From positions 1 to 64,000 of the forward strand of contig CABMCB010000004.1 in NCBI GenBank assembly GCA_902384455.1: a stretch of 64,000 nt of DNA. The letters run 5' to 3'. Position numbers and translations under genes: made by a program. This DNA comes from an uncultured archaeon (GTDB taxonomy: Archaea > Altiarchaeota > Altiarchaeia > IMC4 > SCGC-AAA252-I15). Below are positions 488-24,326 of the stretch, in pieces. How positions within the stretch are numbered: the stretch's first letter is position 1; the number at the start of each line of letters is the position of its first letter. Below the pieces are notes generated by a model, which made no database searches, was not told the origin of the DNA, and saw nothing but the letters and a program-made list of their open reading frames with translations.

Positions 488-1234
488 ATGCTAAATATCT
501 CGTGGCTCATACTAACTTTGAACCGATTCGAGAAGTCCAGCATTGTCATCCCCCACAACCGCGAGAATGCAGGGTATCCTGTCAAGGAATTGGTATGGGT
601 GGACAACGGCTCGACTGACGGCATCCGCGACTTTATGGCCTCCCTCAAGCCTAACGTGTCGGTCCTCTATGACCATAACACAGGCGTGGCAAGAGGATAC
701 AACACGGCCATGGTTATGTCAACCGGCGATTGGATGGTCATTACCGGCAATGATATGATTATGCCGGACAACTGGCTTGGGCTATTCGCCAAGTACATTG
801 AGAATATTCCCAATACACATGCTGTTTCTATGTACCACAAGCCTACTGACCAATGTCCTGAGCGCCTTCGAGGCGAAAGGGTTGTGGAGAACGGCTTGGA
901 ACTTATCAACGCTCAAGCTATGGGACGCCGTATCTATTCCCGGGCCCTACTCAAGAAAGCTGGGTATCTACGGGAAGACTTCGGTCTGTACGGGTGGGAG
1001 GATGTTGAATGGGCCCACCGTACCGAACGGGTATGCAGGGAGAATAGCTGGCGCACCTATGTCATTCCAGACCTTGTTCCCAAGACCCTCGAACATTTTC
1101 AGGGTATAGAAACAGACAAATATGATAACACAGTGTATGTAGACTTCAAGAGAAAAGAAGGGGATGACCCCGACAAACGCAAGTTATTTCAGTGGTACTA
1201 TGATAACAACACGCCTTACTTTTCCCCATTTTAG
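488..1234 (+). CDS. glycosyltransferase family 2
   Basis: SIVIPHNREN...WVDNGSTDG motifs typical of GT-A/GT2. Start chosen as the first ATG after the + promoter 451..480 (leaderless); ORF frame 416..1234. Confidence 0.7.
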   Translation: MLNISWLILTLNRFEKSSIVIPHNRENAGYPVKELVWVDNGSTDGIRDFMASLKPNVSVLYDHNTGVARGYNTAMVMSTGDWMVITGNDMIMPDNWLGLFAKYIENIPNTHAVSMYHKPTDQCPERLRGERVVENGLELINAQAMGRRIYSRALLKKAGYLREDFGLYGWEDVEWAHRTERVCRENSWRTYVIPDLVPKTLEHFQGIETDKYDNTVYVDFKRKEGDDPDKRKLFQWYYDNNTPYFSPF

Positions 1235-1236
1235 GG

Positions 1237-1265
1237 TTGACGACTTAATCCTCCTGTGATACTAT
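1237..1265 (+). promoter_or_regulatory. sigma70-type promoter TTGACG-N17-TACTAT
   Basis: Preceded by TTTTAGGG like the other promoters in this block. Followed by about 355 nt with no convincing ORF. Confidence 0.55.
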
Positions 1266-1620
1266 GCTGTCACTGAGGCCGAGCCGGTTCCCCAGTTGAC
1301 CCGTGGGGGATACCATTGCCGGGGATAACGGGTATTCAAATGGCAGTACGGGGCCAAACCGTCGTACATTCCCTGCCTCTTTTCGGCGTGAACATTGGGC
1401 GGCGCTGGCTGAAAAAGACTACCTCGTTTGCACTGGTGGCCAACAGGAGAGGTAGAGAAGCGCGGCGATTGCGGAAGCGCGGAGTTAATCTCCGCCTTGT
1501 GTAAGAAGCACCCCGGTCCCTTCCAAGGACCCAGCTTGCCTGTTTGCGCGGCTGCTTTGGGGAGAACCCTTACTGTCGGTGTGAATCCGACCCCAATGTT
1601 CTTATCTTGCGGGAGAACAC

Positions 1621-1869
1621 GTGAAAACAACCATGAAGAAATTTATGCTCGTGTGGTGTGCGGTGTGTGCCATGCTCAACCTTATCGCCATCATCATCGG
1701 CCTCTTCGAGAGCGACTGGCATACGGTTTGGTTGAACTTCGGCCTGTTACTCCTCAATTCCGCCTGTTTCGTCTACTGGCTCCATGAACTCTGGAAGGAG
1801 GAAAAGCAACGTGTGGCTATTCAACAAGAATCTCTTCAAGCCCGGGACAGCCGTTCGAATCAAGGCTAA
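1621..1869 (+). CDS. small membrane protein (2 TM helices)
   Basis: GTG start after RBS GGGAGAA. Hydrophobic stretches CAVCAMLNLIAIIIGLF and FGLLLLNSACFVYWL. Confidence 0.5.
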   Translation: MKTTMKKFMLVWCAVCAMLNLIAIIIGLFESDWHTVWLNFGLLLLNSACFVYWLHELWKEEKQRVAIQQESLQARDSRSNQG

Positions 1870-2017
1870 CCCCCATAGAGGGCAAGAGGGTGTGGTCCTG
1901 ACCCCCGAATACGGCACGAGGTACGGAGGAATCCCCAAGGGAGCCGTGCCGGTGGGATACGGGAACAGAACGCGCCTGTGGTTTTGGGAGAACGAGCTGG
2001 AAGTCATCAAGCCCTAA
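1811..2017 (+). CDS. hypothetical protein
   Basis: GTG at 1811 with RBS GGAGGAAAA 8 nt upstream. Overlaps the previous gene in another frame. Confidence 0.4.
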   Translation: MWLFNKNLFKPGTAVRIKANPHRGQEGVVLTPEYGTRYGGIPKGAVPVGYGNRTRLWFWENELEVIKP

Positions 2018-2022
2018 GAGGG

Positions 2023-2052
2023 TGGACTTATAAGCTGACCGTGTGATACAAT
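2023..2052 (+). promoter_or_regulatory. candidate promoter (weak -35 TGGACT, -10 TACAAT)
   Basis: TACAAT at 2047-2052, 12 nt upstream of tRNA-Ser. Confidence 0.35.
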
Positions 2053-2064
2053 ATCCTCTCAGTG

Positions 2065-2147
2065 GGAGAGGCGGACATGGGTGCGTCAAGCGCTCTCGAA
2101 AAGCGTCGGGTGTAACAGCCTTGCAGGTTCGAGTCCTGCCCTCTCCG
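2065..2147 (+). tRNA. tRNA-Ser(CGA), class II, CCA encoded
   Basis: Acceptor GGAGAGG/CCTCTCC, anticodon loop CTCGAAA, T-arm GCAGG-TTCGAGT-CCTGC, long variable arm, 3' GCCA. Close to E. coli serU. Confidence 0.8.
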
Positions 2148-2167
2148 CCAAATTGAGGAGGAGTAGA

Positions 2168-2902
2168 ATGAAGAACTTAAAGATTTTCACTGTGCTGACT
2201 ATGCTCGTGATGCTATTCCCTCTCGCGGCTTGTAACAAACCAAGCCCAGCCTCCCCCGCCAAAATCACACAACCTCAACTTCCGCAGGTTCAAGCCTGTA
2301 TTGTCGATACCTGGGCCTGCCTCGGAACCAACTGCATGCCGTCAAGTAAGATTGCCATCGCTTACATTGTGGATGGCAACGGAGCCGCAGTAACCAATGC
2401 TGCGGTCACTTTGTCGTGGGATACCTGGACTTTGGAGCTTCCGTGCATAGGTACCGGGTCTTCTTCGGGAATCAATCAGCCCGGTATGACAGCAACGTCC
2501 ATTGATGGTGGTGTGTACCGATATGTTGCACTCGATTCCAGTATTTCAGGTAAAAGTTGTACCCTAAGCGTAGCAACAGGTGGAAGTACATACACCACGA
2601 CATTCACGTGCATTGATGGCTCCCCTTCCATTGTTTCCGGGGCCTCAGGCGTCACCTGTTCCTGGAATCCGGGCGTTGGAAACTTCAACACCATCGCGTA
2701 TAACGACAACGGAGCAACTACAAATTCCCGAATCGGACCTCCTATTCCATCGAATCCCTACATTCTTTCGAGTGGTGTATTCACCTTCCCAGGTAACGGA
2801 AACAGCTCGGTTGGTTTGTATTTATGGCAGGAAGACGGATTTTCAGGTTTAGGCTCGAATTCCTTCATCCTGACAAATAAGACCTTTGTTCAGTATTACT
2901 AA
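2168..2902 (+). CDS. lipoprotein (signal peptide with LAAC lipobox), Thr/Gly/Ser-rich
   Basis: RBS GAGGAGG; N-terminus MKNLKIFTVLTMLVMLFPLAAC. Confidence 0.6.
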   Translation: MKNLKIFTVLTMLVMLFPLAACNKPSPASPAKITQPQLPQVQACIVDTWACLGTNCMPSSKIAIAYIVDGNGAAVTNAAVTLSWDTWTLELPCIGTGSSSGINQPGMTATSIDGGVYRYVALDSSISGKSCTLSVATGGSTYTTTFTCIDGSPSIVSGASGVTCSWNPGVGNFNTIAYNDNGATTNSRIGPPIPSNPYILSSGVFTFPGNGNSSVGLYLWQEDGFSGLGSNSFILTNKTFVQYY

Positions 2903-2908
2903 TCAAGG

Positions 2909-2937
2909 TTGACTAAATCCAGAAATTGAGGTACAAT
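2909..2937 (+). promoter_or_regulatory. sigma70-type promoter TTGACT-N17-TACAAT (tRNA operon)
   Basis: Sits 11 nt upstream of tRNA-Ala. Confidence 0.6.
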
Positions 2938-2948
2938 ACTTATCTACT

Positions 2949-3019
2949 GGGGCTGTAGTTAAACGGGATAACCTCTGCTTTGCAAGCAGATGTTCAGGGT
3001 TCAATTCCCTGCGGCTCCA
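2949..3019 (+). tRNA. tRNA-Ala(TGC), CCA encoded
   Basis: G3-U70 identity pair, anticodon loop TTTGCAA, T-arm CAGGG-TTCAATT-CCCTG. Confidence 0.85.
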
Positions 3020-3027
3020 CCAAATTC

Positions 3028-3099
3028 GCCCTGTAAGCATAGATAGCGATGCGCCGGTTTTGTAAACCGGTGAGCTCGGCGCAAATCCGGGACGGGGCT
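3028..3099 (+). tRNA. tRNA-Thr(TGT), CCA encoded; unusual T-loop CGCAAAT
   Basis: Acceptor GCCCTGT/ACGGGGC, anticodon stem CCGGT/ACCGG, loop TTTGTAA. Confidence 0.7.
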
Positions 3100-3122
3100 C
3101 CAAGTTAAACTTTGAGGAGGTT

Positions 3123-3383
3123 GTGATGTTCACCTGCTGCAAGTGCCAGAAGTCTTCGAAGCCGGGCGAAAAGGGAATCATGGCTATCCTTGAAACCCGT
3201 CCAAAATCCTACACACAAATCGTCAGTGAACGGCATACGCACCGCGAGAAGGGTACCCTCGTCGAAGAGTTCGTCGACGTGGAACGACCCGTGGAAGTCA
3301 ACACTCGCCGGAGACGTACTCCTCGCTCGTTCACCGAGACTGTGCGCGAGGGCCTAGCCCACGCCACCTGCGTCTCCGCTTAA
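3123..3383 (+). CDS. hypothetical small protein between tRNAs
   Basis: RBS GAGGAGG 6 nt before the ATG; 86 aa; Arg-rich C-terminus. Confidence 0.4.
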   Translation: MMFTCCKCQKSSKPGEKGIMAILETRPKSYTQIVSERHTHREKGTLVEEFVDVERPVEVNTRRRRTPRSFTETVREGLAHATCVSA

Positions 3384-3390
3384 CTAACCT

Positions 3391-3464
3391 GCACTCCTAC
3401 CTCAATTGGTTAGAGGACCCGGTTGATAACCGGGCTGTTCGTGGTTCGATTCCACGGGAGTGCA
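3391..3464 (+). tRNA. tRNA-Ile(GAT), CCA encoded
   Basis: Acceptor GCACTCC/GGAGTGC, anticodon loop TTGATAA, T-arm CGTGG-TTCGATT-CCACG. Confidence 0.85.
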
Positions 3465-3470
3465 CCATAC

Positions 3471-3542
3471 AGGTCATTAGTTCAGCGGCTAGAATGTCCG
3501 ACTCCAAATCGGACGACGTTGGTTCGAGTCCAGCATGACCTG
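3471..3542 (+). tRNA. tRNA-Trp(CCA), CCA encoded
   Basis: Acceptor AGGTCAT/ATGACCT, anticodon stem TCCGA/TCGGA, loop CTCCAAA. Confidence 0.85.
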
Positions 3543-3549
3543 CCAATAA

Positions 3550-3623
3550 CCCTGCTTAGCTTAGAGGCCCAAAGCGCTTCCCTGTCACGGAAGAGAACGA
3601 GGGTTCAAATCCCTCAGCAGGGG
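3550..3623 (+). tRNA. tRNA-Asp(GTC), CCA encoded
   Basis: Acceptor CCCTGCT/AGCAGGG, anticodon loop CTGTCAC, T-loop TTCAAAT. Confidence 0.85.
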
Positions 3624-3632
3624 CCATACTTG

Positions 3633-3661
3633 ACACAAGCATGTGCTTATGGTAGAATTAC
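3633..3661 (+). promoter_or_regulatory. sigma70-type promoter TTGACA-N17-TAGAAT (tRNA operon)
   Basis: Sits 9 nt upstream of tRNA-Lys(CTT). Confidence 0.6.
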
Positions 3662-3670
3662 AACTTACAT

Positions 3671-3743
3671 GGGCCGGTAGCTCAATGGTTAGAGCAAGCG
3701 CCTCTTAAGCGCAAGGTTGAGGGTTCGACTCCCTCTTGGCCCA
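3671..3743 (+). tRNA. tRNA-Lys(CTT), CCA encoded
   Basis: Acceptor GGGCCGG/TTGGCCC (two G-U pairs), anticodon loop CTCTTAA, T-arm GAGGG-TTCGACT-CCCTC. Confidence 0.75.
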
Positions 3744-3749
3744 CCATAC

Positions 3750-3821
3750 GGCGTGTTCGTCTATCGGTCAGGACGCCGCCCTTTCAAGGCGGTAAGGTGG
3801 GTTCGATTCCCACACACGCTG
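3750..3821 (+). tRNA. tRNA-Glu(TTC), CCA encoded
   Basis: ACGCCGCCCTTTCAAGGCGG core closely resembles bacterial tRNA-Glu. T-arm GTGGG-TTCGATT-CCCAC. Confidence 0.8.
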
Positions 3822-3829
3822 CCAATTTT

Positions 3830-3914
3830 GGAAGGATGACAGAGCGGTAATGTGTCCCCTTGCTAAGGGGCAGCCAGGGTAAAACCTGCCCAGGTTCGAA
3901 TCCTGGTCCTTCCG
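3830..3914 (+). tRNA. tRNA-Ser(GCT), class II, CCA encoded
   Basis: Acceptor GGAAGGA/TCCTTCC, anticodon loop TTGCTAA, long variable arm, T-arm CCAGG-TTCGAAT-CCTGG. Confidence 0.85.
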
Positions 3915-3924
3915 CCAATTTAGA

Positions 3925-4009
3925 GGAGAGTTGGCAGAGCGGTAATGCACCTGCTTGGAAAGCAGGAGTCAGGGTAAAACCTGCGGGGGTTCAAATCCCT
4001 CACTCTCCG
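3925..4009 (+). tRNA. tRNA-Ser(GGA), class II, CCA encoded
   Basis: Acceptor GGAGAGT/ACTCTCC, anticodon stem CCTGC/GCAGG, loop TTGGAAA, long variable arm. Confidence 0.85.
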
Positions 4010-4099
4010 CCATAAGCATTGCTGAATCCGTAGGGAAAGCTTTACTCCCTCCTGGATGACGACGGTCAACCAGGAATCAGTAGCCACGCCTGAGCGCGG

Positions 4100-4178
4100 G
4101 GCGAAGTTGGAGCGAGAGGCATGGGTGAGTCGGGGAGATAACAAAGCCTCGATGCGAAGGTTCGATTCCTTTACCTCA
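4100..4178 (+). other. tRNA-like fragment (T-arm GAAGG-TTCGATT-CCTTT with no matching 5' acceptor)
   Basis: Canonical T-arm at 4156-4175, but no acceptor or anticodon arm could be folded. Possible tRNA remnant. Confidence 0.3.
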
Positions 4179-4209
4179 AAAGAAAAGCCCTGCGGTGTCA
4201 GAAGTGCTT

Positions 4210-4280
4210 GCGGGTGTAGCTCAACGGTAGAGCTCCAGTCTTCCAAACTGGCCACGGGGGTTCGATTCCCCCCACCCGCT
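4210..4280 (+). tRNA. tRNA-Gly(TCC), CCA encoded
   Basis: Acceptor GCGGGTG/CACCCGC, anticodon stem CCAGT/ACTGG, loop CTTCCAA. Confidence 0.85.
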
Positions 4281-4286
4281 CCATAC

Positions 4287-4382
4287 GCGACTGATGGTGT
4301 ATATCGGTATCCAGCCCGAGCAAAGCCGTCAGAAGGACGGAAGGACTAGGGTGCGAGTCCCTAGCAGTCGCAATCTACTGAT
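4287..4382 (+). tRNA. aberrant tRNA-like element (96 nt; 7-bp acceptor GCGACTG/CAGTCGC, 6-bp T-stem, no CCA, no clean anticodon arm)
   Basis: T-arm CTAGGG-TGCGAGT-CCCTAG and an internal hairpin CCGTC-AGAAG-GACGG. Possibly a pseudo-tRNA or an unusual tRNA such as a Sec-like 13-bp coaxial stack. Confidence 0.3.
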
Positions 4383-4496
4383 TCCAGACCCAGGAAAGAG
4401 GACCAGGGAAACTGGTTAAGGGCTGAACCTCTACCATCCCGTCGGAATCGGGGCATGAGGGTAGAGGGGAGCGATAAACAATAACCTCCTCAGTGA

Positions 4497-4567
4497 CCGA
4501 GCAAGGTGTTACGGTAGCATGCGTGGTTTGGGACCATGCGGCCCAGGTTCGACTCCTGGTGCTCGGA
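4497..4567 (+). tRNA. tRNA-Pro(TGG), CCA encoded
   Basis: Acceptor CCGAGCA/TGCTCGG, anticodon loop TTTGGGA, T-arm CCAGG-TTCGACT-CCTGG. Confidence 0.85.
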
Positions 4568-4577
4568 CCATTTTTAC

Positions 4578-4659
4578 GGGCGAGTGGCGAAATTGGTATA
4601 CGCACCGCACTCAGAATGCGGCGGGTAACACCGTGTGGGTTCGAATCCCTCCTCGCCCA
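4578..4659 (+). tRNA. tRNA-Leu(CAG), class II, CCA encoded
   Basis: Acceptor GGGCGAG/CTCGCCC, anticodon stem CCGCA/TGCGG, loop CTCAGAA, long variable arm. Confidence 0.8.
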
Positions 4660-4667
4660 CCATTTGA

Positions 4668-4738
4668 GGGCTTGAAGCATTAAGGTGATGCAAGCGGCTT
4701 TTAACCGCTAGAAGACGGGTCAGTACCGTCCGGGCCCA
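4668..4738 (+). tRNA. tRNA-Lys(TTT), CCA encoded; non-canonical T-loop GTCAGTA
   Basis: Acceptor GGGCTTG/CGGGCCC (two G-U pairs), anticodon stem AGCGG/CCGCT, loop CTTTTAA. Confidence 0.65.
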
Positions 4739-4752
4739 CCATTAGGAGCTGA

Positions 4753-5265
4753 ATGAAAGTCCTGTTCCTCGACATAGACGGGGTTGTGGTCCACGCGAAA
4801 TCAGGCAAGGACGTTCATCACCTCGCAATCACCTTGTGGGACCCAAAGTGCAACGAACGGGTCAAGAGGATTTGTCAGAAAACAGGGGCTAAAATCGTTT
4901 TACATTCGGTCTGGTCGTACAGGCCAATTGAGGAAATCAAGACCCTCTTCAGGGAGTATGGTTTCCCAGACGACATACTACACCCAGACTTAACGGCCAG
5001 GAAGCCGGGCGAAAGCCAGCGACAAGAAGGGGCAATCGAGATTTTCAAGGAAAAAAGTGACTATGTCAAGGGTTGGCTTAGCCGCCATCCTGAGGCACAA
5101 CAGGTAGTGTTAATTGACGATGAAACCGAAAACTGGCCATGTCCTTGGGTCAAGATACACCATGGATGGTACAGAGGTGGGATTCAAGAAGAACATGTAG
5201 CACGTGCGGTGGATATTCTCGGTTTAGCTGGGCCTGTGGCGGAATTGGCAGACGCGCAGCCTTGA
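4753..5265 (+). CDS. HAD-superfamily phosphatase-like protein (Pnk phosphatase-domain-like)
   Basis: N-terminal FLDIDGVVV (DxDG motif I), KIVLHSVWS, VVLIDDETENW. The last 36 nt overlap tRNA-Leu(GAG). Confidence 0.55.
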   Translation: MKVLFLDIDGVVVHAKSGKDVHHLAITLWDPKCNERVKRICQKTGAKIVLHSVWSYRPIEEIKTLFREYGFPDDILHPDLTARKPGESQRQEGAIEIFKEKSDYVKGWLSRHPEAQQVVLIDDETENWPCPWVKIHHGWYRGGIQEEHVARAVDILGLAGPVAELADAQP

Positions 5266-5313
5266 GGTGGCTGTGTCCGCAAGGACGTGGAGGTTCAACC
5301 CCTCTCGGGCCCA
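5230..5313 (+). tRNA. tRNA-Leu(GAG), class II, CCA encoded
   Basis: Acceptor GGGCCTG/CGGGCCC, anticodon stem CAGCC/GGCTG, loop TTGAGGT, Leu-type D-arm TGGCGGAATTGGCAGACGCGC. Confidence 0.8.
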
Positions 5314-5327
5314 CCATTATTTTTAGG

Positions 5328-5356
5328 TTGACATCCTTACTCCCTCCTGATACAAT
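5328..5356 (+). promoter_or_regulatory. sigma70-type promoter TTGACA-N17-TACAAT
   Basis: Preceded by TTTTTAGG. Drives paralog 1. Confidence 0.65.
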
Positions 5357-5476
5357 GTGTTCATGGGCAATTCAACGATGACAATATCCTTTACCAGAAC
5401 CAACGGTTCTCTTAATACGGGATATTGGACTCAGCATGACCCAGACTTAAATCCTACGAAAGAGAGCCAACCAGCT

Positions 5477-6064
5477 ATGACATCAGCCCCCGCTTCGTCG
5501 ACCACACCCGCTGCGAAGAAGACCCTCAAGCAGCAGTTGGAGGAAGCCGCTTACAAGGCGGACTGCCTCAAGCTCAGGACCGTCCTACTCGACCTCGTCA
5601 TGAAGAACACCCCCGGCCTGAACGGAAAAGCTGTCAAGCAGAAGGACCCAAAGGTGGCTGCCATCGAGGAAGTCATCAAGAACGGTCGCTGGGGTGGGTC
5701 TTCCAGCATGCAGAACGACGTCAAGAACCTCTGCGAGGCCCTTTTGGGCATCCCCCTCGACCTGACCAAGCCATCCTACATGCCGCAGCCGTTCATGTTG
5801 GCGGTCCCTCTCGACAACATCAACAGCCACGATTACACCGTAGGCAACGTGAGCATGTTCTTCTCAAGCGGTGGGTCGCATGCCATCGAAGTCGTAAAGG
5901 GGGTGGCGCGGACCGGAAACAGTCATGACGCCTCCGAGCTGGGAAACCCTAAGCACTACCGTTTCCCTTCCAAGGCCGAGGCCGAGGAGTTCGTCACCAA
6001 GGTCCTCTCAACCCCCAGCAACATCGCGGAAGTCAAGAAGATGGCTGGCAGGCATTTGCCCTGA
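5477..6064 (+). CDS. paralog 1 of tandem 4-member family (unknown function; C-terminal SKAEAEEFVTKV motif)
   Basis: Start chosen by homology with paralog 2 (MTSAPASS...KKTLKQQLEEA). Conserved ATPGL, PKDPKV, QPFML.VP, SHDY.VG, AVEV, R.GN motifs. Confidence 0.6.
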   Translation: MTSAPASSTTPAAKKTLKQQLEEAAYKADCLKLRTVLLDLVMKNTPGLNGKAVKQKDPKVAAIEEVIKNGRWGGSSSMQNDVKNLCEALLGIPLDLTKPSYMPQPFMLAVPLDNINSHDYTVGNVSMFFSSGGSHAIEVVKGVARTGNSHDASELGNPKHYRFPSKAEAEEFVTKVLSTPSNIAEVKKMAGRHLP

Positions 6065-6071
6065 GCCTTGT

Positions 6072-6104
6072 AGAGCGGGGGAGAAATCCCCCGCTCTTTT
6101 CTGT
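6072..6104 (+). terminator. rho-independent terminator
   Basis: AGAGCGGGGG-agaaat-CCCCCGCTCT followed by TTTTCTGTT. Confidence 0.7.
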
Positions 6105-6132
6105 TGACACACAACCCGTCTTGTGGTACAAT
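6104..6132 (+). promoter_or_regulatory. sigma70-type promoter TTGACA-N17-TACAAT
   Basis: Drives paralog 2; RBS AGGGAGG before ATG 6166. Confidence 0.65.
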
Positions 6133-6165
6133 GCTTTTAGTGAAATCAACCAGGGAGGACTTTGG

Positions 6166-6735
6166 ATGACGACAGCGACCAAGAAAACCGCCAAGCAGCT
6201 CTTGGAGGAGGCGGAAGCCCTCAAGATGCAGAAGGAATTGTCCGATTTCAGGGCGCTTCTCCTGTCGAAGGTGCTCAAGGCCACCCCTGGTTTGGACCCC
6301 AAGGCTCCCGTAGCCCCTCCTAAGGACCCCAAGGTCATCGAGTTGGAGAGAATCTTCAACACGGCCTCGTGGGGTAGCAGCAACACCAAGCAGTCCGTCC
6401 AGCAAATCGTCGAGGTCTTGGTGGGAACCAAGCTCAACACGAAGGACACGAAGTCGAAGCAGTTTATGCTGACCATCCCGGTGATTCCGTGCGCTGGCCA
6501 TGACTATACTCCCGGCAACGTGTGTATGTTCCTGTTCAATGGGCACGACCAAGCCGTCGAAGTCAAGAACAAGACCATCCGCATCGGGAACAGCATGCCC
6601 ACCAACCACCTGAACGACCCCAAGGTTTTCAGGTATCCCTCCAAGGCCGAGGCCGAGGAGTTCGTCACCAAGGTCGCGGCTTCCAAGAAGAATATCGAGG
6701 ACTTGAAAGGCTACCTTGGGTCGGGTGTCCTCTGA
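6166..6735 (+). CDS. paralog 2 of tandem family
   Basis: MTTATKKTAKQLLEEA N-terminus; shares the family motifs and C-terminal SKAEAEEFVTKV. Confidence 0.65.
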   Translation: MTTATKKTAKQLLEEAEALKMQKELSDFRALLLSKVLKATPGLDPKAPVAPPKDPKVIELERIFNTASWGSSNTKQSVQQIVEVLVGTKLNTKDTKSKQFMLTIPVIPCAGHDYTPGNVCMFLFNGHDQAVEVKNKTIRIGNSMPTNHLNDPKVFRYPSKAEAEEFVTKVAASKKNIEDLKGYLGSGVL

Positions 6736-6743
6736 AAAAACGG

Positions 6744-6772
6744 TTGACATCACAGTGCAGTTGATGTAAGAT
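6744..6772 (+). promoter_or_regulatory. sigma70-type promoter TTGACA-N17-TAAGAT
   Basis: Drives paralog 3; RBS CAGGAGG before ATG 6810. Confidence 0.6.
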
Positions 6773-6809
6773 GTACACACGTCGGAAAACTACCCAGGAG
6801 GTTTATCGC

Positions 6810-7406
6810 ATGGCTGACACCAAGACGAAAGCACCGAAGGAATCCTTCGAGGACACGGTCCTGAAGGAGGTCAGCCCCGCCGTCCGAGCCGTCTTGCTCG
6901 AACGTGTGATGTTGGCCACCCCGGGATTGGACCCCAACGGGTTCACGCTGCCGGTCGACGCTCCCAAGGACCCCAAGGTGTTGGCCATCGAGAAGGCCAT
7001 CCGCGACAACCAGTTCAACCACAGCTCGGACAACGACGTTCTGGCAACCATCTTGTCGACTGTCCTGGACATGAAGCTGGAGCCCTATCCAAAGTCCAAG
7101 TCGTCCTTCACCCAACCTTTCATGCTGGTCGTGCCTCTGAACAACACCAACAGCCACGACTACGCCGTGGGCGGGGTCTGCATGCTCCGCTCCAAGGGCT
7201 GCAAAGACGCCGTGGAAGTTGTGAGAGGCAAGGTCCGTGTGGGCAACGACCTTCCGACGAGCAAACTGGGCGACGGCGTGGAACTTCGGTTCGCGTCCAA
7301 GGCCGAGGCCGAGGAATTCGTGACCAAGGTCGTCTCCTCCCTGGAGAACATCCAGAAGGTTCGGGGCTGGGTTCCCGAACTGGACGCCTACCTGGACAAG
7401 ATGTAA
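6810..7406 (+). CDS. paralog 3 of tandem family
   Basis: MADTKTKAPKE N-terminus; ATPGLDPN, PKDPKV, QPFMLVVP, SHDYAVGGV, SKAEAEEFVTKV. Confidence 0.65.
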   Translation: MADTKTKAPKESFEDTVLKEVSPAVRAVLLERVMLATPGLDPNGFTLPVDAPKDPKVLAIEKAIRDNQFNHSSDNDVLATILSTVLDMKLEPYPKSKSSFTQPFMLVVPLNNTNSHDYAVGGVCMLRSKGCKDAVEVVRGKVRVGNDLPTSKLGDGVELRFASKAEAEEFVTKVVSSLENIQKVRGWVPELDAYLDKM

Positions 7407-7421
7407 TCGCCTCCGGGTGCA

Positions 7422-7462
7422 GAGGGCGCGGGGCCACAAGCCTCGCGCCCTTTCTGTTTTTA
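7422..7462 (+). terminator. rho-independent terminator
   Basis: GC-rich stem GGGCGCGGGGCC-acaa-GCCTCGCGCCC followed by TTTCTGTTTTT. Confidence 0.65.
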
Positions 7463-7465
7463 GGG

Positions 7466-7494
7466 TTGACAATGAACAAAAACTGTGATAGAAT
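7466..7494 (+). promoter_or_regulatory. sigma70-type promoter TTGACA-N17-TAGAAT
   Basis: Preceded by TTTTAGGG. Drives paralog 4. Confidence 0.65.
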
Positions 7495-7537
7495 GCTTTC
7501 ACGTTGTTAAAAAATCTAAAACCGGAGGTAGTACAGA

Positions 7538-8128
7538 ATGAGCTCGTCGAAGAAGTCGTCGAAGAAGGTGTCGAAGAAGAGCGGCCTGTCCAAGGCTGGG
7601 AAGGCGCTGTTGGAGCTGGCCTTGAAGGCCACCCCGACCCCGACCCTCCCCGCCAAGAAGACCTCGCCCGTGCCCGTGCCTGTGCCCATCAACCCGCAGG
7701 TGAAGGCCGTCGAGGACGTCCTGGCCAAGAGCCCGTGGGGCCCCGGCGACACTCGCACCAAGCTGTTGGCGGACGTGGCCGCTGCCATCCTGGGCAAGCC
7801 GGTGACCGTCCCCTACGCCCCCTCCACCTGCTCCTCGTCCTGTTCCACAAAGCGCGGGATGGTGGTGGTGGTGACGATGGTGGACGTCCCCGGCTACACC
7901 AAGGGCCAGCCCGTCATGTTCAAGTCGACTGGCGGCTCCCACGGCTTGACCGTGAAGGACGGCAAGGTCGTGCGGATGGACTACTCCCTGCCGGTGGGCA
8001 AGCTGGGCGACCCGAGCGTCCTCCGCTACGCCACCAAGAGCGAAATCGAGGGCCTCGTCAAGCGCTTGACGGCCACCCCCTCGCTCGTGCAGGACACGCA
8101 GTCCTGGATGGAGCTGGTCCTGGCCTAA
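7538..8128 (+). CDS. paralog 4 of tandem family (most divergent; Lys/Ser-rich N-terminus)
   Basis: Retains ATPTP, QPVMF, GGSHG, VLRYATKSEIEGLVKRL, which correspond to the family motifs. Confidence 0.55.
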   Translation: MSSSKKSSKKVSKKSGLSKAGKALLELALKATPTPTLPAKKTSPVPVPVPINPQVKAVEDVLAKSPWGPGDTRTKLLADVAAAILGKPVTVPYAPSTCSSSCSTKRGMVVVVTMVDVPGYTKGQPVMFKSTGGSHGLTVKDGKVVRMDYSLPVGKLGDPSVLRYATKSEIEGLVKRLTATPSLVQDTQSWMELVLA

Positions 8129-8146
8129 GCCGGTCCCTGCTGTACC

Positions 8147-8182
8147 GGGCGGGGGACCTAACCAGTCCCCCGCTTTTTTTTG
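8147..8182 (+). terminator. rho-independent terminator
   Basis: GCGGGGGAC-ctaacca-GTCCCCCGC followed by TTTTTTTT. Confidence 0.75.
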
Positions 8183-8198
8183 TTGGTATACTTACGGC

Positions 8199-8282
8199 GG
8201 GCTTGTGGTGAAATTGGCAGACACGCCTGCCTCAAGAGCAGGTGGCCGCAAGGTCGTGAGGGTTCGAGTCCCTCCTTGCCCA
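8199..8282 (+). tRNA. tRNA-Leu(CAA), class II, CCA encoded; two U-U mismatches in acceptor stem
   Basis: Anticodon stem CCTGC/GCAGG, loop CTCAAGA; Leu-type D-arm; T-arm GAGGG-TTCGAGT-CCCTC. Acceptor GGGCTTG/CTTGCCC. Confidence 0.7.
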
Positions 8283-8292
8283 CCAAATAATC

Positions 8293-8378
8293 GGGCTTGT
8301 GGCGAAACTGGCAGACGCGCCCTACTTAAGATGGGGTGCCCCGAGAGGGGCGTGTGGGTTCAAATCCCACCTTGCCCA
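8293..8378 (+). tRNA. tRNA-Leu(TAA), class II, CCA encoded; same mismatched acceptor as Leu(CAA)
   Basis: Anticodon loop CTTAAGA; variable-arm hairpin; T-arm GTGGG-TTCAAAT-CCCAC. Confidence 0.7.
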
Positions 8379-8383
8379 CCAAT

Positions 8384-8455
8384 ACCCTCCTCGTTCAACG
8401 GACAGGACACCTCGCTACGGACGAGGAGACTGGGGTTCGATTCCCTAGGAGGGTA
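8384..8455 (+). tRNA. tRNA-Arg(ACG), CCA encoded
   Basis: Acceptor ACCCTCC/GGAGGGT, anticodon stem CCTCG/CGAGG, loop CTACGGA. Confidence 0.8.
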
Positions 8456-8461
8456 CCATAT

Positions 8462-8534
8462 GTCCCAGTAGCTCAGCCGGAAGAGCAACCGCCTTCTAAG
8501 CGGTCGGTCGCAGGTTCGAGTCCTGCCTGGGATG
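8462..8534 (+). tRNA. tRNA-Arg(TCT), CCA encoded
   Basis: Anticodon stem ACCGC/GCGGT, loop CTTCTAA; T-arm GCAGG-TTCGAGT-CCTGC; G1-U72. Confidence 0.8.
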
Positions 8535-8542
8535 CCATTTAT

Positions 8543-8614
8543 GCCCCGGTAGCTCAGCGGAGGAGCAGCGGTTTCCGAAGCCGAAGGACAGGGGTTCAAA
8601 TCCCTTCCGGGGTA
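8543..8614 (+). tRNA. tRNA-Arg(CCG) (anticodon assignment tentative), CCA encoded
   Basis: D-arm GCTC-AGCGGAG-GAGC, anticodon loop TTCCGAA with a 4-bp stem, T-arm AGGGG-TTCAAAT-CCCTT. Confidence 0.6.
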
Positions 8615-8620
8615 CCATAC

Positions 8621-8693
8621 GCACTCGTAATTCAGTGGCCAGAATGCCGGTCCTACACACCGGACGTCGTAGGTTCGAATCCTACCGAGTGCA
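8621..8693 (+). tRNA. tRNA-Val(TAC), CCA encoded; C at position 33
   Basis: Acceptor GCACTCG/CGAGTGC, anticodon stem CCGGT/ACCGG, loop CCTACAC, T-arm GTAGG-TTCGAAT-CCTAC. Confidence 0.7.
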
Positions 8694-8703
8694 CCATTTT
8701 TAT

Positions 8704-8775
8704 GGCCTTGTAGCTTAACTGGTAAGAGCGCCCGCCTGAAGAGCGGGATATCCGGTTCGACACCCGGCGAGGCCA
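8704..8775 (+). tRNA. tRNA-Phe(GAA), CCA encoded
   Basis: Anticodon stem CCCGC/GCGGG, loop CTGAAGA; T-loop TTCGACA. Confidence 0.8.
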
Positions 8776-8786
8776 CCATTTTTATC

Positions 8787-8814
8787 TTGACATCCTCCCT
8801 GACCCTGGTATAAT
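8787..8814 (+). promoter_or_regulatory. sigma70-type promoter TTGACA-N16-TATAAT
   Basis: Immediately downstream of tRNA-Phe; drives gene 8842. Confidence 0.65.
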
Positions 8815-8841
8815 GGGGTCATCTTGAAAGGGAGGTTGACC

Positions 8842-9165
8842 ATGAACGCAGTTCTGAACAGCTCAAACGTCCAGTGCCCCAAGCCCGAGGTCGGGATGGG
8901 TGCCACCAAGCTGTACTTCACCGACCGCGCTGCCTACACCATCGTGCGCGTCTCCCCTTCCGGCAAGACCTTCTGGATGAAGCGTGACAAGGCCACCCGC
9001 ACCGACACCAACGGCATGTCCGAGTCCCAGACCTACTCCTACGAATCCTTGCCCGACATCATGCCGGAGGAAGCGGTCCGCCTGTGCCAGGATGGCCAGT
9101 GGCGCTCCGTGGGGATGAAGGTCTTAGTGAGTGCCCGCAGGGAGTACCACGACTACAGCTTTTAA
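8842..9165 (+). CDS. hypothetical protein
   Basis: RBS GGAGG 7 nt before ATG 8842; ORF frame 8824..9165. Confidence 0.5.
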   Translation: MNAVLNSSNVQCPKPEVGMGATKLYFTDRAAYTIVRVSPSGKTFWMKRDKATRTDTNGMSESQTYSYESLPDIMPEEAVRLCQDGQWRSVGMKVLVSARREYHDYSF

Positions 9166-9167
9166 GG

Positions 9168-9196
9168 TTGACATCAACCAACTCGTCTTGTAAAAT
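9168..9196 (+). promoter_or_regulatory. sigma70-type promoter TTGACA-N17-TAAAAT
   Basis: Preceded by TTTTAAGG. Confidence 0.65.
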
Positions 9197-9224
9197 GTTC
9201 CCACCTCAAGCATAGGAGACGTCC

Positions 9225-9743
9225 ATGGGCCGCGAAGTGCGAATGGTTCCCCCCGGTTGGCAGCACCCTCAGGAGGCTGATGGCAGATACAAGCCTCTCC
9301 TCGACGGTAGCTTCGAAAAGGCCCTGGCCGAATGGACCGAGGGCAAGAAGAAGTGGGAAGAGGGTTTTCGGGAGAACTGGGGCGCGAAAGAAGGCGAACC
9401 CAAGTGGAAGCCCAAGGAAGCAGATGAGACGTGTTCCTGGGTCGAATGGAATGGTTCCAAGCCCCAGAAACGGGATTACATGCCAACCTTCCCAGAAGGC
9501 ACCGCCACTCACCTCATGATGTACGAGACATGCACGGAAGGTACGCCCATCAGCCCCGCTTTCGCCACGCCCGAAGAACTGGCCCACTGGTTGGCTGATA
9601 ACGGGGCCTCGGCCTTCGGAGACATGACGGCCACCTACGAACAGTGGCTGGCGACCTGCAAGTCCGGCTGGGCTCCCAGCGCCGTCTTCACATCCCAGAC
9701 CGGCCTCACGAGCGGGGTCGCGGCCACCAAAGAGCGCGGTTGA
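9225..9743 (+). CDS. hypothetical protein
   Basis: RBS AGGAGACG; 172 aa, Trp- and Glu-rich. Confidence 0.5.
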   Translation: MGREVRMVPPGWQHPQEADGRYKPLLDGSFEKALAEWTEGKKKWEEGFRENWGAKEGEPKWKPKEADETCSWVEWNGSKPQKRDYMPTFPEGTATHLMMYETCTEGTPISPAFATPEELAHWLADNGASAFGDMTATYEQWLATCKSGWAPSAVFTSQTGLTSGVAATKERG

Positions 9744-9769
9744 CATAAGCCCCCTCACTTTAGTAGAAT
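9740..9769 (+). promoter_or_regulatory. sigma70-type promoter TTGACA-N18-TAGAAT (tRNA-His)
   Basis: Overlaps the stop codon of the previous gene; 14 nt upstream of tRNA-His. Confidence 0.6.
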
Positions 9770-9783
9770 GTGCGTCTTGTGGT

Positions 9784-9857
9784 GTGGGCGTAGCTTAGCT
9801 GGTCTAAAGCACTGGGTCGTGGACCCGGCATCGGGAGTTCGAATCTCCCCGCTCACC
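9784..9857 (+). tRNA. tRNA-His(GTG), CCA encoded; position -1 is T rather than G
   Basis: Acceptor GTGGGCG/CGCTCAC, discriminator C, anticodon loop TCGTGGA, T-arm GGGAG-TTCGAAT-CTCCC. Confidence 0.7.
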
Positions 9858-9888
9858 CCAGAAGGCGTACACCAAAAAGGAAACGACC

Positions 9889-10176
9889 GTGCCTCAAGTA
9901 CATGCCAAAGCCCACCCCCTCGCGGGTAAGACCGTGAAAATCCTCAAGGGGGATTTCAAGGGCGAGGAATATCGCCTGGAAGACTGGTGGGACCGTGTGT
10001 CCGGCGAGTCTTGGATGAACTGCGAAGGTAACCCTGCCTGCATCGAGTACGCCCTGCGCTCCTCTGGGCTCCGCAACAAGGAAGACGCGACCCCCATCGA
10101 CAACAACGTGGTCTACGGGAAAATCGGGGCGTTCGGCAAGCTGATGCACGTCTCGACGCTTGACACGCTGGGCTGA
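9889..10176 (+). CDS. hypothetical protein
   Basis: GTG start with RBS AAAGGAAAC; 95 aa. Confidence 0.45.
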   Translation: MPQVHAKAHPLAGKTVKILKGDFKGEEYRLEDWWDRVSGESWMNCEGNPACIEYALRSSGLRNKEDATPIDNNVVYGKIGAFGKLMHVSTLDTLG

Positions 10177-10207
10177 GTCTGTTAAACTGCGTTCACTGGA
10201 GGACGTC

Positions 10208-10300
10208 ATGGACAAGCTTTTGATGGTAGTCGGCGGCATCTTGTTGGTCGTGGTGTTCATTTCGGTGTTCGCCATCTTCGGCGGAACCCTCGTGTACTAG
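10208..10300 (+). CDS. small hydrophobic peptide (30 aa, single TM helix)
   Basis: RBS GGAGGACGTC before the ATG; MDKLLMVVGGILLVVVFISVFAIFGGTLVY. Confidence 0.35.
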   Translation: MDKLLMVVGGILLVVVFISVFAIFGGTLVY

Positions 10301-10437
10301 CTGTGGCCGTCCACTGCCGTCGCTGTGTTCAACCTGCCCGCGCTGACATGGTGGCAGGCTGTGAAGCTGACATGGCTCTGCTCCCTCCTGTTCAAGAGTT
10401 CGAGCGTGTCGACCAAGAAGGACTGAAAGGAACCGGC

Positions 10438-10632
10438 ATGAAGCTCCTGAAGCTGAAGCACAACGGTGAGGCGGGCATCCAGCCGATGACCCAGCCGTCC
10501 AAGGAAGAGAAGAACCCTGAAATCATCTTCCGCTTGACCATCAAGCGGGGGAGCATCCAGGTCCAGGTCGACCTGACCGTCGACGAGGCCATGGACCTTC
10601 TGGAGCCGGTGCTGCAGTACACCAACAAGTAG
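10438..10632 (+). CDS. hypothetical small protein
   Basis: RBS AAGGAACC before ATG 10438. A longer ORF from 10303 is possible. Confidence 0.35.
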   Translation: MKLLKLKHNGEAGIQPMTQPSKEEKNPEIIFRLTIKRGSIQVQVDLTVDEAMDLLEPVLQYTNK

Positions 10633-13042: not shown

Positions 13043-13780
13043 ATGGAAATGGCAAGCTGGTTCGAGGACAAGAAGGGCCAAGGGTATATCTTCCTCACGG
13101 ACGAGGACATCATCGCCCACCACGGGGGAGACAAGAACGGCATCAACTGGAACGACTTCGTCGGCCACCACGGACTGATGCAGGTCTTCCACCTCCCCGA
13201 CGCCTACAACCATTACGAGGGCTTCGTCCGCATGCCGGACGTCATCCGCAAGACCATCCTCGCGGGCAAGATGGACATGATGTTCGCCCACGCCGACAAC
13301 CTGTGCGAGGCGACCCCCGAGTTCATCCCCATGATGCACCGGCTGTCCTCCCGCTACAGCAAGGTGGCGTCCGCCCTCTCCTCCAGCCCCTACAGGGACT
13401 GGCACATCGAGAAGGGAAAGCCCACCCTCCACATGCAGATGAAGGTCGGCATCGAGAACGGCTTCAAGGGCTCGACTATCGGGGAAATCCTGCGCCACCC
13501 CCTGTGCGACGAGAAGACCATGTTCCTCGCCTTGGAAGGTGCCCGTGAGCTGATGGACGAGTACCCGGAGCACCACCACTACCGGAACATGGTGGAGAAC
13601 CAGTACGTCACCAAGAAGGTCCTGAACTTCATCCTCAAGAACATCCCCCACGTGGATGTGAAGGAGTGGGCCGAGGCCAGGTTGAAGACCTGCAAGGACC
13701 TGAAGCTTACGAAGGTCACTCTGACCCGTAAGAAGGTCAAAACCGTCCAGATAGACAAAGCCCTGGTAAGGAGCCTGTGA
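13043..13780 (+). CDS. paralog A1 of a duplicated family of unknown function (MEMASWFE...FLTDEDIIAHHG)
   Basis: RBS GGGAGG. Shares its full-length scaffold with 15333..16121 (ASWFE, FLTD.D.IA, W.D.VGH.GLM.VF.LP, MPDVIRK, KMD..FAHA.NL.EATPEF, KGSTIG.ILRHP.C.E.TM.LAL). Confidence 0.6.
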   Translation: MEMASWFEDKKGQGYIFLTDEDIIAHHGGDKNGINWNDFVGHHGLMQVFHLPDAYNHYEGFVRMPDVIRKTILAGKMDMMFAHADNLCEATPEFIPMMHRLSSRYSKVASALSSSPYRDWHIEKGKPTLHMQMKVGIENGFKGSTIGEILRHPLCDEKTMFLALEGARELMDEYPEHHHYRNMVENQYVTKKVLNFILKNIPHVDVKEWAEARLKTCKDLKLTKVTLTRKKVKTVQIDKALVRSL

Positions 13781-15093
13781 TGAAGAAACCACTCAAGGTC
13801 GTCATGCTGGACTTCACCGGCACTATCGACGTCAGCGAATACAAGTACACGCCTTCGAAGACGTCGTACTTCCCCGGCGTCAAGACGAAGGCCGAGAAGG
13901 CGGAGGAAGCCCGCTCGAAGTACCGTGGCGGGTGCAAGTACCCCACCAAGGCGGCACGGAAGGCGGCGCAGGCGGAGCGTAAGGCCGAGCGCAAAGCGGC
14001 CTTATTCCCCAAGACGACGACCGCTCTAGCTCCGACTACCGAGACTTTCGACCGGGACAAGTATCCACGTCGTGCGGCCTTGCTCGACAAGCGTCACGGC
14101 AGCATCATCAACGCCTGGGAGCCCAGCCTGAGCCGATACGTCGACAAGCGCTGGGACGCCGACCTGCAGCGGTACGTCATCATCGAGGGAACGACCCCGT
14201 CAGCCCCTCCGCGCCGCAAGACGTACCTCAAGTGGAACTACGCGCTGAACCGCAACGTCGAGAGCTACTGGGACGATGTCCAGGGTCGGTGGGTTCCGGT
14301 CGAGGAAGAGCTCATCCCGAACAAGCATCATTCCGGACTGTCCGGGGAGCCTCGGTTCCATGGTGAGCAGCCAAAGTACGTGTACGACAGCCTGACGAAC
14401 ATGTGGGTCCCCCGCGAATCTCAGGGCAGCTTCTTCGAGAACGTCGACGACGGCAGCGGTTCGTTCGAGCATCGAGAGAAGGGTGCTCTCCGTACCGGCA
14501 CTTCCCAGTACTACGGCGGAAGCAAGGCCAGCAAGCCCAGCGGAGCCAAGGACTACTTCGGCAAGCTGTACGGGATGGGCAAGGCGTTCCTCGCGTCGAC
14601 GTACTACTACGGTCCCAACAAGGAGTGCGTCAAGTTCCTCCGGAAGTTGCTGGACAAGACCGGCGCGAAAATCGTGTACTCCTCGACCCGTCGCTACGAC
14701 GGCTGGAAGAAGTGCGCGGAGTTCGTGGGCCTTCCCCTTCACTACTCCCTGGGCTACACACACCCAGCTTTCGGCGTGACCCCCGAAATCCCTTACGAGT
14801 ACAAGGGCTGGGGTGGCAAGGGTGGCTGGGGAAATCAAGGCGGCGTCGAGCCCGAAGGCCACTACGTGGAAGAGGAAGGAGCCGGGGACTACAGCTACGC
14901 TGGCTGGAAGCAGCGTGAGAAGGAAATCCGCAAGTGGTTGGATGCCTTCAAGCGCCCCCTGGCCAACTACGTCATCCTCGACGACGACCCCATCAACAGC
15001 CCCGAAATGGCCAAGCATTGGGTCCCGTCCATCAAGGCCAACGGATTCAAGGAAGCGGAATACAAGCAGGCCCTTCGAATCCTGAGCAAGTAA
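13780..15093 (+). CDS. HAD-like phosphatase with large cap insertion
   Basis: N-terminal LKVVMLDFTGTID (DxTGT), C-terminal KIVYSSTRR and YVILDDDP. C-terminus resembles the HAD protein at 4753 and the Pnk phosphatase domain. Gly-rich GWGGKGGWGNQGG. Confidence 0.5.
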   Translation: MKKPLKVVMLDFTGTIDVSEYKYTPSKTSYFPGVKTKAEKAEEARSKYRGGCKYPTKAARKAAQAERKAERKAALFPKTTTALAPTTETFDRDKYPRRAALLDKRHGSIINAWEPSLSRYVDKRWDADLQRYVIIEGTTPSAPPRRKTYLKWNYALNRNVESYWDDVQGRWVPVEEELIPNKHHSGLSGEPRFHGEQPKYVYDSLTNMWVPRESQGSFFENVDDGSGSFEHREKGALRTGTSQYYGGSKASKPSGAKDYFGKLYGMGKAFLASTYYYGPNKECVKFLRKLLDKTGAKIVYSSTRRYDGWKKCAEFVGLPLHYSLGYTHPAFGVTPEIPYEYKGWGGKGGWGNQGGVEPEGHYVEEEGAGDYSYAGWKQREKEIRKWLDAFKRPLANYVILDDDPINSPEMAKHWVPSIKANGFKEAEYKQALRILSK

Positions 15094-18558: not shown

Positions 18559-18799
18559 TACCTTGGTATAGGTGGGTCAGCGTGGAAGGACACGCCTGAA
18601 AGAATGAAAGGGCCCCTCTTGCTAAGGGGACGGGCAGCGATAAGCGGAGAACGCCGCCGCCCAGGCTAGGTACCAACCCGCGAATGTGCGAGTAAACACT
18701 TAAGCGGAGGTCTTTCTGGGTCCTGTTTTACTACAGCGCCCCGTGAAACCTAGAGCCGGAATCAATCCCGGTACCCACCGACTTTTATCAGGAGTCACC

Positions 18800-24300: not shown

Positions 24301-24326
24301 CCTAAAAAATTCAAGGAGAAGAAAGT

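Follow-up and report, generated by a model that had tools for sequence, protein, structure and literature searches.

What might four adjacent, related genes of an undescribed family be doing in the middle of a run of tRNA genes? The question is raised by CABMCB010000004.1 (assembly GCA_902384455.1), a 69,214-bp metagenomic contig of which we analyzed positions 1 to 64,000 (the window), and whose source proteins (VVB50617.1 and VVB50619.1) were deposited under the label "uncultured archaeon". ARAGORN places 22 tRNA genes at 2065-9860 on the + strand, and the four-gene array interrupts this run between tRNA-Leu(gag) and tRNA-Leu(caa) (Table 1). The reading that we favor is that the four genes encode immediate-early proteins of an uncultured SPO1-like (Herelleviridae-related) phage, proteins that dock on a host macromolecule; stated at this level, that of a class of function, we put its probability at roughly 45%.

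To begin with the genes themselves, an initial annotation made from the nucleotide sequence had described four tandem paralogs, and the four open reading frames (ORFs) are where it placed them, with products of 195, 189, 198 and 196 aa. Copies 2, 3 and 4 are 46%, 44% and 31% identical to copy 1, the weakest pair (copies 2 and 4) is still matched by BLASTP at E=1e-13, and a hidden Markov model (HMM) built from distant relatives alone matches all four copies at 1e-21 to 1e-33. BLASTP and the independent HMM agree, and on sequence evidence the four genes are true paralogs. The annotation had also listed a set of motifs common to the four. These are present, with small variations, in copies 1 to 3, but they are mostly absent from copy 4. 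The near-invariant His and Gly-Asn of the family are missing there, and the motifs found instead are PGY, at the place of HDY, and MFKSxGGSHG. The products are proteins of about 21 kDa, three basic and one (copy 3) acidic, with no hydrophobic N-terminus. Three ORFs of 147-274 aa on the - strand (5956-6780, 6750-7502 and 7499-7942) overlap the array in antisense and appear "conserved" in other loci too. We considered these as genes and rejected them, as they are most likely a by-product of the sense frame, which is rich in G and C at third codon positions (GC3), and their "homologs" mirror sense-strand conservation.

The signals around the genes are those of strong and early transcription. When the sigma-70/sigma-A type consensus is scored over 12 positions, a TTGACA-N17-TAnnAT promoter is found before all four genes, with 10-11 of the 12 positions matching, so that each gene does have a consensus promoter of its own, as had been claimed. 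The array region contains seven promoter-like sites where 1.2 are expected. One promoter per gene is thus real, yet it is the style of the entire early block: the whole window has 19 TTGACA-N16-18-TAnnnT sites against 0.96 expected, 17 of them on the + strand, at 3.6-27 kb. The three strong intrinsic terminators that had been noted are present after copies 1, 3 and 4. There is none after copy 2, the stop codon of which lies 9 nt ahead of the next -35 element, and copy 2 transcripts should therefore run into copy 3. Copies 2 to 4 have good Shine-Dalgarno sites of the GGAGG type. The array lies at the start of a promoter-rich + strand block (about 5.4-29.5 kb), and its GC3 is 0.80-0.95; that of the rest of the block, from about 8.8 kb, is 0.64-0.90, and that of the - strand replication and structural genes (30000-64000) is 0.55-0.69. 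Promoters, Shine-Dalgarno sites, the promoter-rich block and GC3 together lend support to the early, strongly expressed character proposed for these genes, although early and strong use are here read from sequence signals. It may be that early genes are adapted to host codon usage and that later ones suit the 22 tRNAs which the phage itself encodes. The overall GC content also falls near 30 kb, from about 0.56-0.60 to 0.47-0.52.

The start of copy 1 deserves a comment. The database annotation of this gene is 233 aa long and takes in the in-frame stretch 5363-5476. Because GC3 in this stretch is 0.42, against 0.80-0.95 in the genes, we read it as leader, take the start at 5477 as right and consider the 233-aa annotation over-extended. 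It shows neither a significant RNA fold (z -0.98) nor a match to Rfam.

From its gene content the window is phage DNA: it encodes a portal, a terminase, a DNA polymerase and a UvsX-like recombinase, and the portal is 40-42% identical to the portals of SPO1-like (Herelleviridae) phages. Other genes encode a T4-type RNA ligase, HAD_SAK_2 RNA-repair domains and a radical SAM protein. Despite the archaeal label, the sigma-70/sigma-A-type promoters with extended -10 elements, the Shine-Dalgarno sites, the intrinsic terminators and the SPO1-like portal indicate a phage of bacteria, probably of Firmicutes-like ones.

The closest described arrangement is the host-takeover module of phage SPO1, a set of genes described as small and early, with the kind of promoters and ribosome-binding sites that highly expressed genes usually have (PMC6873191). 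The likeness lies in the small early-type genes, the SPO1-like myovirus, the strong host-type promoters and ribosome-binding sites and the several short transcription units, and the array, with its four promoters, three terminators and the Shine-Dalgarno sites of copies 2-4, has this layout. There are differences as well. The array genes, at 189-198 aa, are on the large side, and copy 3, when searched by tblastn against the 50,697 phage records, SPO1-like phages included, showed no homology to gp37-gp60 (nothing at E<=1). Furthermore, the array consists of four ancient paralogs within a tRNA array, whereas the SPO1 module is made of unrelated genes.

That the four proteins belong to no recognized family, as the initial annotation had it, was borne out by every library searched: Pfam, PHROGs, NCBIfam and PADLOC gave no match, and searches of the Protein Data Bank (PDB) turned up no full-length relative. 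Member-by-member scans of 148 sequences against Pfam-A, PHROGs v4, NCBIfam 20 and PADLOC 2 likewise returned nothing consistent, and none of the 148 members matches a KOW, SH3 or Tudor model of Pfam. Copy 3 and two other members (P0017 and P0029; P numbers denote family members and L numbers loci) have no tblastn match in 50,697 GenBank phages, and the array DNA shows no similarity to GenBank phages. A word-indexed search of 5.8 billion proteins found only six non-self relatives. Exhaustive HMMER searching of 1.84 billion cluster representatives gave 163 representatives (50% identity clusters) at E<=1e-3, all of them metagenomic. Thirteen of these are close (E<=1e-30) and form the window's clade; the rest, mostly of 135-250 aa, align to the profile at positions of about 50-175. 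Searching for further arrays with the close-family profile gave none in IMG/VR, and the JGI metagenomes gave just the locus already known. Scanning with a strict, degenerate DNA motif led to a true member on one phage contig of IMG/VR, whereas nothing convincing came from 185,579 species genomes, and there is thus no sign of prophage copies carrying that motif. The protein family is new to the databases searched; as a kind, however, early modules of accessory genes in large virulent phages are known.

The wider metagenomic phage family (e.g. P0016-P0152) resembles the array proteins in length and has the same conserved core, with the consensus S-x-K-A...FG...L-x-S-x-x-L-G-E...VVPxxNxNxHxYxxGxP...GxxGNxL...RxATxxEIxxF. 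Across 133 distant members, V, H, Y, G, N, R and E are near-invariant, and to this core the window's clade adds an ATPGLDP / PKDPKV linker. The long contigs of distant members, where present, look like phages. The four-type array beside tRNA genes is seen in the window's clade only, although one distant locus (L009) has two adjacent members. Two members (P0153 and P0113) have two barrel modules per chain, and two others (P0078 and P0050) have an extra N-terminal Cys-rich segment that is zinc-ribbon-like by eye. Among fusion partners we found no enzymatic or known effector domain, and a single weak extra Pfam match (DUF4926). In one further setting, P0107 and P0154 end a conserved operon with genes for a RuvB-like winged-helix AAA protein and a Peptidase_C26/GATase protein (L011/L012, about 5900-10600; L019/L020, about 500-6700), and the contigs of P0154 (L019/L020) have an additional faint match to a carboxylate-amine (COOH-NH2) ligase.

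A binding function is suggested by the predicted structure. The AlphaFold2 model of copy 3, made from an alignment of 148 sequences and taken here as representative of all four proteins, has a predicted local distance difference test (pLDDT) score of 94.7 and a predicted template modeling (pTM) score of 0.84. It begins with a long N-terminal helix (13-36), followed by an extended Pro/Lys-rich linker, a helical hairpin (55-66 and 72-86) and a short helix (97-100); a five-stranded barrel (106-161) that appears to be SH3/KOW-like comes next, and then three helices (164-174, 178-185 and 190-196). The best fold matches include KOW domains and the barrels of ribosomal proteins eL21 and eL27. Identity to the SH3-like small beta-barrels (KOW of NusG/RfaH/Spt5, SH3, Tudor of PcrA/UvrD, PsaE/NdhS, eL21/eL27 and FeoA) is 4-20%. 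Unlike in these, the barrel is here flanked by a helical N-terminal portion (about 100 residues) and by three helices at the C-terminus, for which the PDB offers no counterpart. The viral structure database BFVD gave nothing at E<=0.001; its best match (E 0.06, probability 0.97) covers 87 columns of an unnamed 414-aa protein. In the model, the VVPxxNxNxHxYxxG motif maps to a long loop between strands 1 and 2, which we take to be the position of the SH3 RT loop, G-N sits in the turn with which strand 4 ends, and R-x-A-T-x-x-E-I-x-x-F covers strand 5 and the first part of the next helix. SH3-like domains usually bind their ligands at such loop and strand-end positions, and we infer from the model that the conserved barrel residues would form a ligand-binding pocket.

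Under the reading that we favor, host RNA polymerase would transcribe each gene from its own near-consensus promoter, and four related, soluble, cytoplasmic proteins would accumulate fast after infection. The pocket on the SH3-like barrel would then dock onto a host macromolecule, be it a protein or a nucleic acid, which would thereby be redirected or disarmed. The four types would be specialized, and because the pocket residues of copy 4 (type D, below) are replaced, this type may bind something else or serve as a partner subunit of the others. Early timing, high abundance, a binding function and a host-directed purpose are all what we infer here. By analogy, a host-takeover or anti-defence role may reasonably be supposed, early phage genes with strong host-type promoters having been a repeated source of factors of both kinds. 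The layout of four conserved paralogs is unusual, and nothing yet shows an unexpected mechanism. If the function should prove ordinary (e.g. one more host-protein binder), the value of the family would lie mainly in the annotation of viral dark matter. It is nevertheless a tractable target, consisting of four small soluble proteins with a predicted pocket (His116, Tyr118, Gly145-Asn146 and Arg160 in copy 3), among which type D provides a natural pocket-less comparison.

How old the array is can be judged from related phages. In all four close phages the array is inside or right beside a tRNA array. In L001, 11 tRNA genes and a 100-aa ORF are followed by three copies, and in L007 and L006 three copies follow tRNA-Leu(gag); L010 has a C-terminal fragment of a copy, three full copies and then tRNA-Arg, Arg, Arg and Phe, like the window. 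An identity matrix and a neighbor-joining tree resolve four orthologous types (A to D, corresponding to copies 1 to 4), with bootstrap values of 92 for A, 73 for B, 77 for C and 96 for D, and each window copy clusters with the orthologs of other phages and not with its neighboring copies. The type order (A-C-D in L001, B-C-D in L007/L006 and A-B-C-D in L010) is kept in at least three other metagenomic phages. As the types are common to these phages, the duplications must predate their divergence. The transcription signals are also similar, with one TTGACA-N17 promoter per copy in L001, L006 and L007, as in the window, and in the same three loci the gene before type C has no terminator, while types C and D are followed by terminators. 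The fixed order of four ancient types, together with the two-module relatives, raises the question of whether the copies act together.

Two earlier impressions of the copies did not survive this comparison. Copy 4, said to be highly remodelled, is a conserved type with motifs of its own and with orthologs in other phages. Diversifying selection, which had been proposed for the set as a whole, is not supported, as the copies are ancient types in a fixed order and their orthologs are just modestly more diverged than neighboring genes: family orthologs are 35-54% identical between phages, against 46-79% for the neighbors, which suggests a family that evolves somewhat faster than its surroundings, although not strikingly so. 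Where residues are identical, the codons of the paralogs agree in about 50% of cases, as codon usage alone would predict; synonymous sites are therefore saturated, and the ratio of nonsynonymous to synonymous substitutions (dN/dS) is uninformative on diversifying selection. Type A shows two peculiarities. It is apparently missing beside tRNA-Leu(gag) in L007, and in L003, at about position 928 (position 2188 of L001), a lone G-to-T difference among otherwise identical contigs of different samples turns its codon 30 (Glu) into a stop. Type A may be dispensable, or the L003 stop may be an assembly error.

Several observations weigh against host-directed binders. The nonsense change in type A means that at least that copy may be dispensable, and copy 3 showed no similarity by tblastn to any SPO1 host-takeover protein. 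One distant subclade sits in long operons downstream of glutamine amidotransferase genes rather than in obvious early modules. It is just as possible that the conserved His, Tyr, Asn, Arg and Glu have a catalytic role. Finally, all four close phages keep the array tightly within or next to their tRNA arrays, and this could instead speak for a role related to RNA.

This last point leads to the first alternative, that the proteins are RNA- or tRNA-binding accessory factors. The SH3/KOW-like barrels would then bind RNA, and the proteins, working alongside the tRNA set and the RNA-repair genes of the phage, might act as chaperones of its tRNAs, take part in their processing or protect them against anticodon nucleases of the host. 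Besides the placement of the arrays, this alternative draws on the basic character of three of the four copies (pI 9.2-9.9, where pI is the isoelectric point), on the KOW domains and eL21/eL27 barrels among the best fold matches, and on the two HAD_SAK_2 domains, the T4-type RNA ligase and the nucleotidyltransferase encoded in the window. We nevertheless think it unlikely. Distant members are found away from tRNA genes (there are none in L014 and L019-L022, and 9 kb lie between in L011), copy 3 is acidic (pI 5.8), and no RNA-binding family matched any member in the library scans. Moreover, tRNA genes and early promoters occupy the same region, so that adjacency may just reflect a shared transcription zone.

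If the conserved polar residues are instead an active site, the four genes would encode small enzymes or enzyme subunits, with His, Tyr, Asn, Arg and Glu acting possibly in nucleotide or DNA-base modification and with type D as a catalytically dead partner. That these residues are near-invariant over more than 130 diverged members would fit such a role, as would the behavior of type D, which has lost His and Gly-Asn and yet is conserved in itself, like pseudo-enzyme partners. The operons described above could also be read in this way, P0107 and P0154 lying just downstream of Peptidase_C26/GATase genes, with the RuvB-like gene and the faint ligase match on the contigs of P0154 in addition. Genes of these kinds occur in phage clusters for DNA-base hypermodification, and SPO1-like phages modify thymine. 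On the other hand, a small SH3-like barrel is a fold that usually binds and does not catalyze, neither sequence nor fold searches picked up an enzyme family, the amidotransferase neighborhood is confined to one subclade with a ligase match that is faint, and no genes of these kinds were noticed among the window ORFs scanned. We therefore regard enzymes as unlikely too.

A similarly doubtful proposal, compatible with either the tRNA-factor or the enzyme alternative, is that the four paralogs are subunits of one hetero-oligomer, a single machine. Types C and D are together in all four arrays and the order is fixed, the gene upstream of type C is always predicted, from its missing terminator, to be co-transcribed into type C, and the charges are complementary, C being acidic and A, B and D basic. 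The fusion of two barrel modules in one chain in P0153 and P0113 points the same way. Against this, a promoter for each gene and a terminator for most of them fit independent dosage, many distant members are single-copy, and type A is missing or truncated in some lineages. A more specific form of the idea, which we consider a long shot, is an Sm/LSm-like hetero-oligomer of SH3-like barrels, made in bulk at the start of infection from the middle of the tRNA array and acting on RNA, for example by shielding phage tRNAs from tRNA-cleaving defences. The Sm fold, which together with ring assembly would mark an Sm/Hfq-like protein, gave no structural match. If true, such an assembly would be an undescribed class of phage RNA-directed anti-defence or takeover complex, in a family of at least 160 unannotated clusters.

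That composition or annotation alone accounts for the shared features, or that they mark a known repeat family such as the transcription activator-like (TAL) effectors, is very improbable. The one point in favor, a match of the four-copy profile to TAL effector chains in a PDB sequence search (E=2.8e-14), vanishes with deeper profiles, and paralogy is supported by BLASTP and independent HMMs, by the orthologs of other phages and by a structure model of high confidence. Kinship to the TAL effectors was rejected on the alignments themselves as well: TAL effectors consist of tandem repeats of about 34 residues, each of which should match significantly, whereas the score here adds up 16 repeats that reach no more than 3.5 bits apiece, with only one 28-residue stretch aligned and no single significant stretch. 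The score drops to 7e-5 with a 10-sequence profile and is gone with a 133-sequence profile.

There remains the matter of the nucleotide blocks. Near-identical blocks had been reported at the C-terminal ends of all four genes, and a 36-nt block, encoding SKAEAEEFVTKV, is indeed found in copies 1 to 3. It is absent from copy 4 and from the rest of the window (the longest run that copy 4 has in common with any other copy is at most 11 nt), and it is not at the very C-terminus, since 20-30 residues still follow it in the proteins. Given the residues and the codon usage of the genes, the chance of twelve identical codons is about 3-4e-4. The segment encoded is the most conserved part of the protein family (RxATxxEIxxF). 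Orthologs in other phages differ here in both residues and codons, and none of the related phage loci that we fetched contains the block. The best reading is that it represents a short gene-conversion tract in this lineage, laid over strong protein constraint; alternatively, the block may have a function at the nucleotide level.

Table 1. Features in and around the four-gene array (positions in the window)
Feature	Position	Strand	Evidence and remarks
tRNA-Leu(gag)	5230..5316	+	ARAGORN; final tRNA gene ahead of array; also directly precedes array in L007
Promoter P1, TTGACA-N17-TACAAT, extended -10 TG	5328..5356	+	11/12 matches
Leader, about 120 nt	5357..5476	+	non-coding by composition (GC3 0.42 vs 0.80-0.95 in genes)
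Copy 1, type A, 195 aa, pI 9.15	5477..6064	+	ORF; ortholog L1a 46-47% identical; clade bootstrap 92
36-nt block in copy 1	5969..6004	+	identical to 6640-6675
Intrinsic terminator after copy 1	6072..6097	+	11-bp stem, 8 GC pairs, T run
Promoter P2, TTGACA-N17-TACAAT, extended -10 TG	6104..6132	+	consensus scan
Copy 2, type B, 189 aa, pI 9.34	6166..6735	+	ORF; orthologs L7a, L10a; clade bootstrap 73
36-nt block in copy 2	6640..6675	+	identical to copy 1 block
Promoter P3, TTGACA-N17-TAAGAT	6744..6772	+	10/12 matches
Copy 3, type C, 198 aa, pI 5.79	6810..7406	+	ORF; protein modelled; orthologs P0005 (70%), L6a, L10b, L1b; clade bootstrap 77
36-nt block in copy 3	7296..7331	+	34/36 nt
Intrinsic terminator after copy 3	7421..7453	+	14-bp stem, 10 GC pairs
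Promoter P4, TTGACA-N17-TAGAAT, extended -10 TG	7466..7494	+	consensus scan
Copy 4, type D, 196 aa, pI 9.91, GC3 0.95	7538..8128	+	ORF; orthologs L6b (57-58%), L1c, L10c, P0012-14; clade bootstrap 96
Intrinsic terminator after copy 4	8147..8175	+	11-bp stem, 8 GC pairs, T8
tRNA-Leu(caa)	8199..8285	+	ARAGORN; first tRNA gene past array

A few further features of the window can be recorded. The genes at 4753-5265, 13777-15093, 18743-19507 and 27068-28210 encode two HAD_SAK_2 ("Swiss Army Knife" RNA repair) domains, a nucleotidyltransferase and a T4 Rnl1-type RNA ligase, a set that could be a tRNA or RNA repair kit and suggests that the phage faces host defences that cleave tRNA. Rfam adds a tRNA at 3028-3099 that ARAGORN missed, and does not list those at 2065-2150 and 5230-5316. 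A tRNA-like element at 24226-24302 has an odd anticodon loop (ARAGORN reports "tRNA-???" with the anticodon "gg") and an Rfam tRNA score of 29.9 bits, against a threshold of 29; a similarly odd tRNA, with the four-base anticodon "gtac", is found at 3457-3538 of L010. Other protein genes also lie within the tRNA run, namely a phosphatase-like HAD_SAK_2 gene (4753-5265) and the small ORFs 8824-9165 and 9225-9743, each with a consensus promoter. The sole promoter of the region to match at 12/12 positions (TTGACA-N16-TATAAT with TG) is in the stretch 8787-9165 and drives a 113-aa ORF. The product of this ORF matches phrog_33370, of unknown function, and at 79% identity to its counterpart in L010 it is the best conserved gene of the neighborhood.

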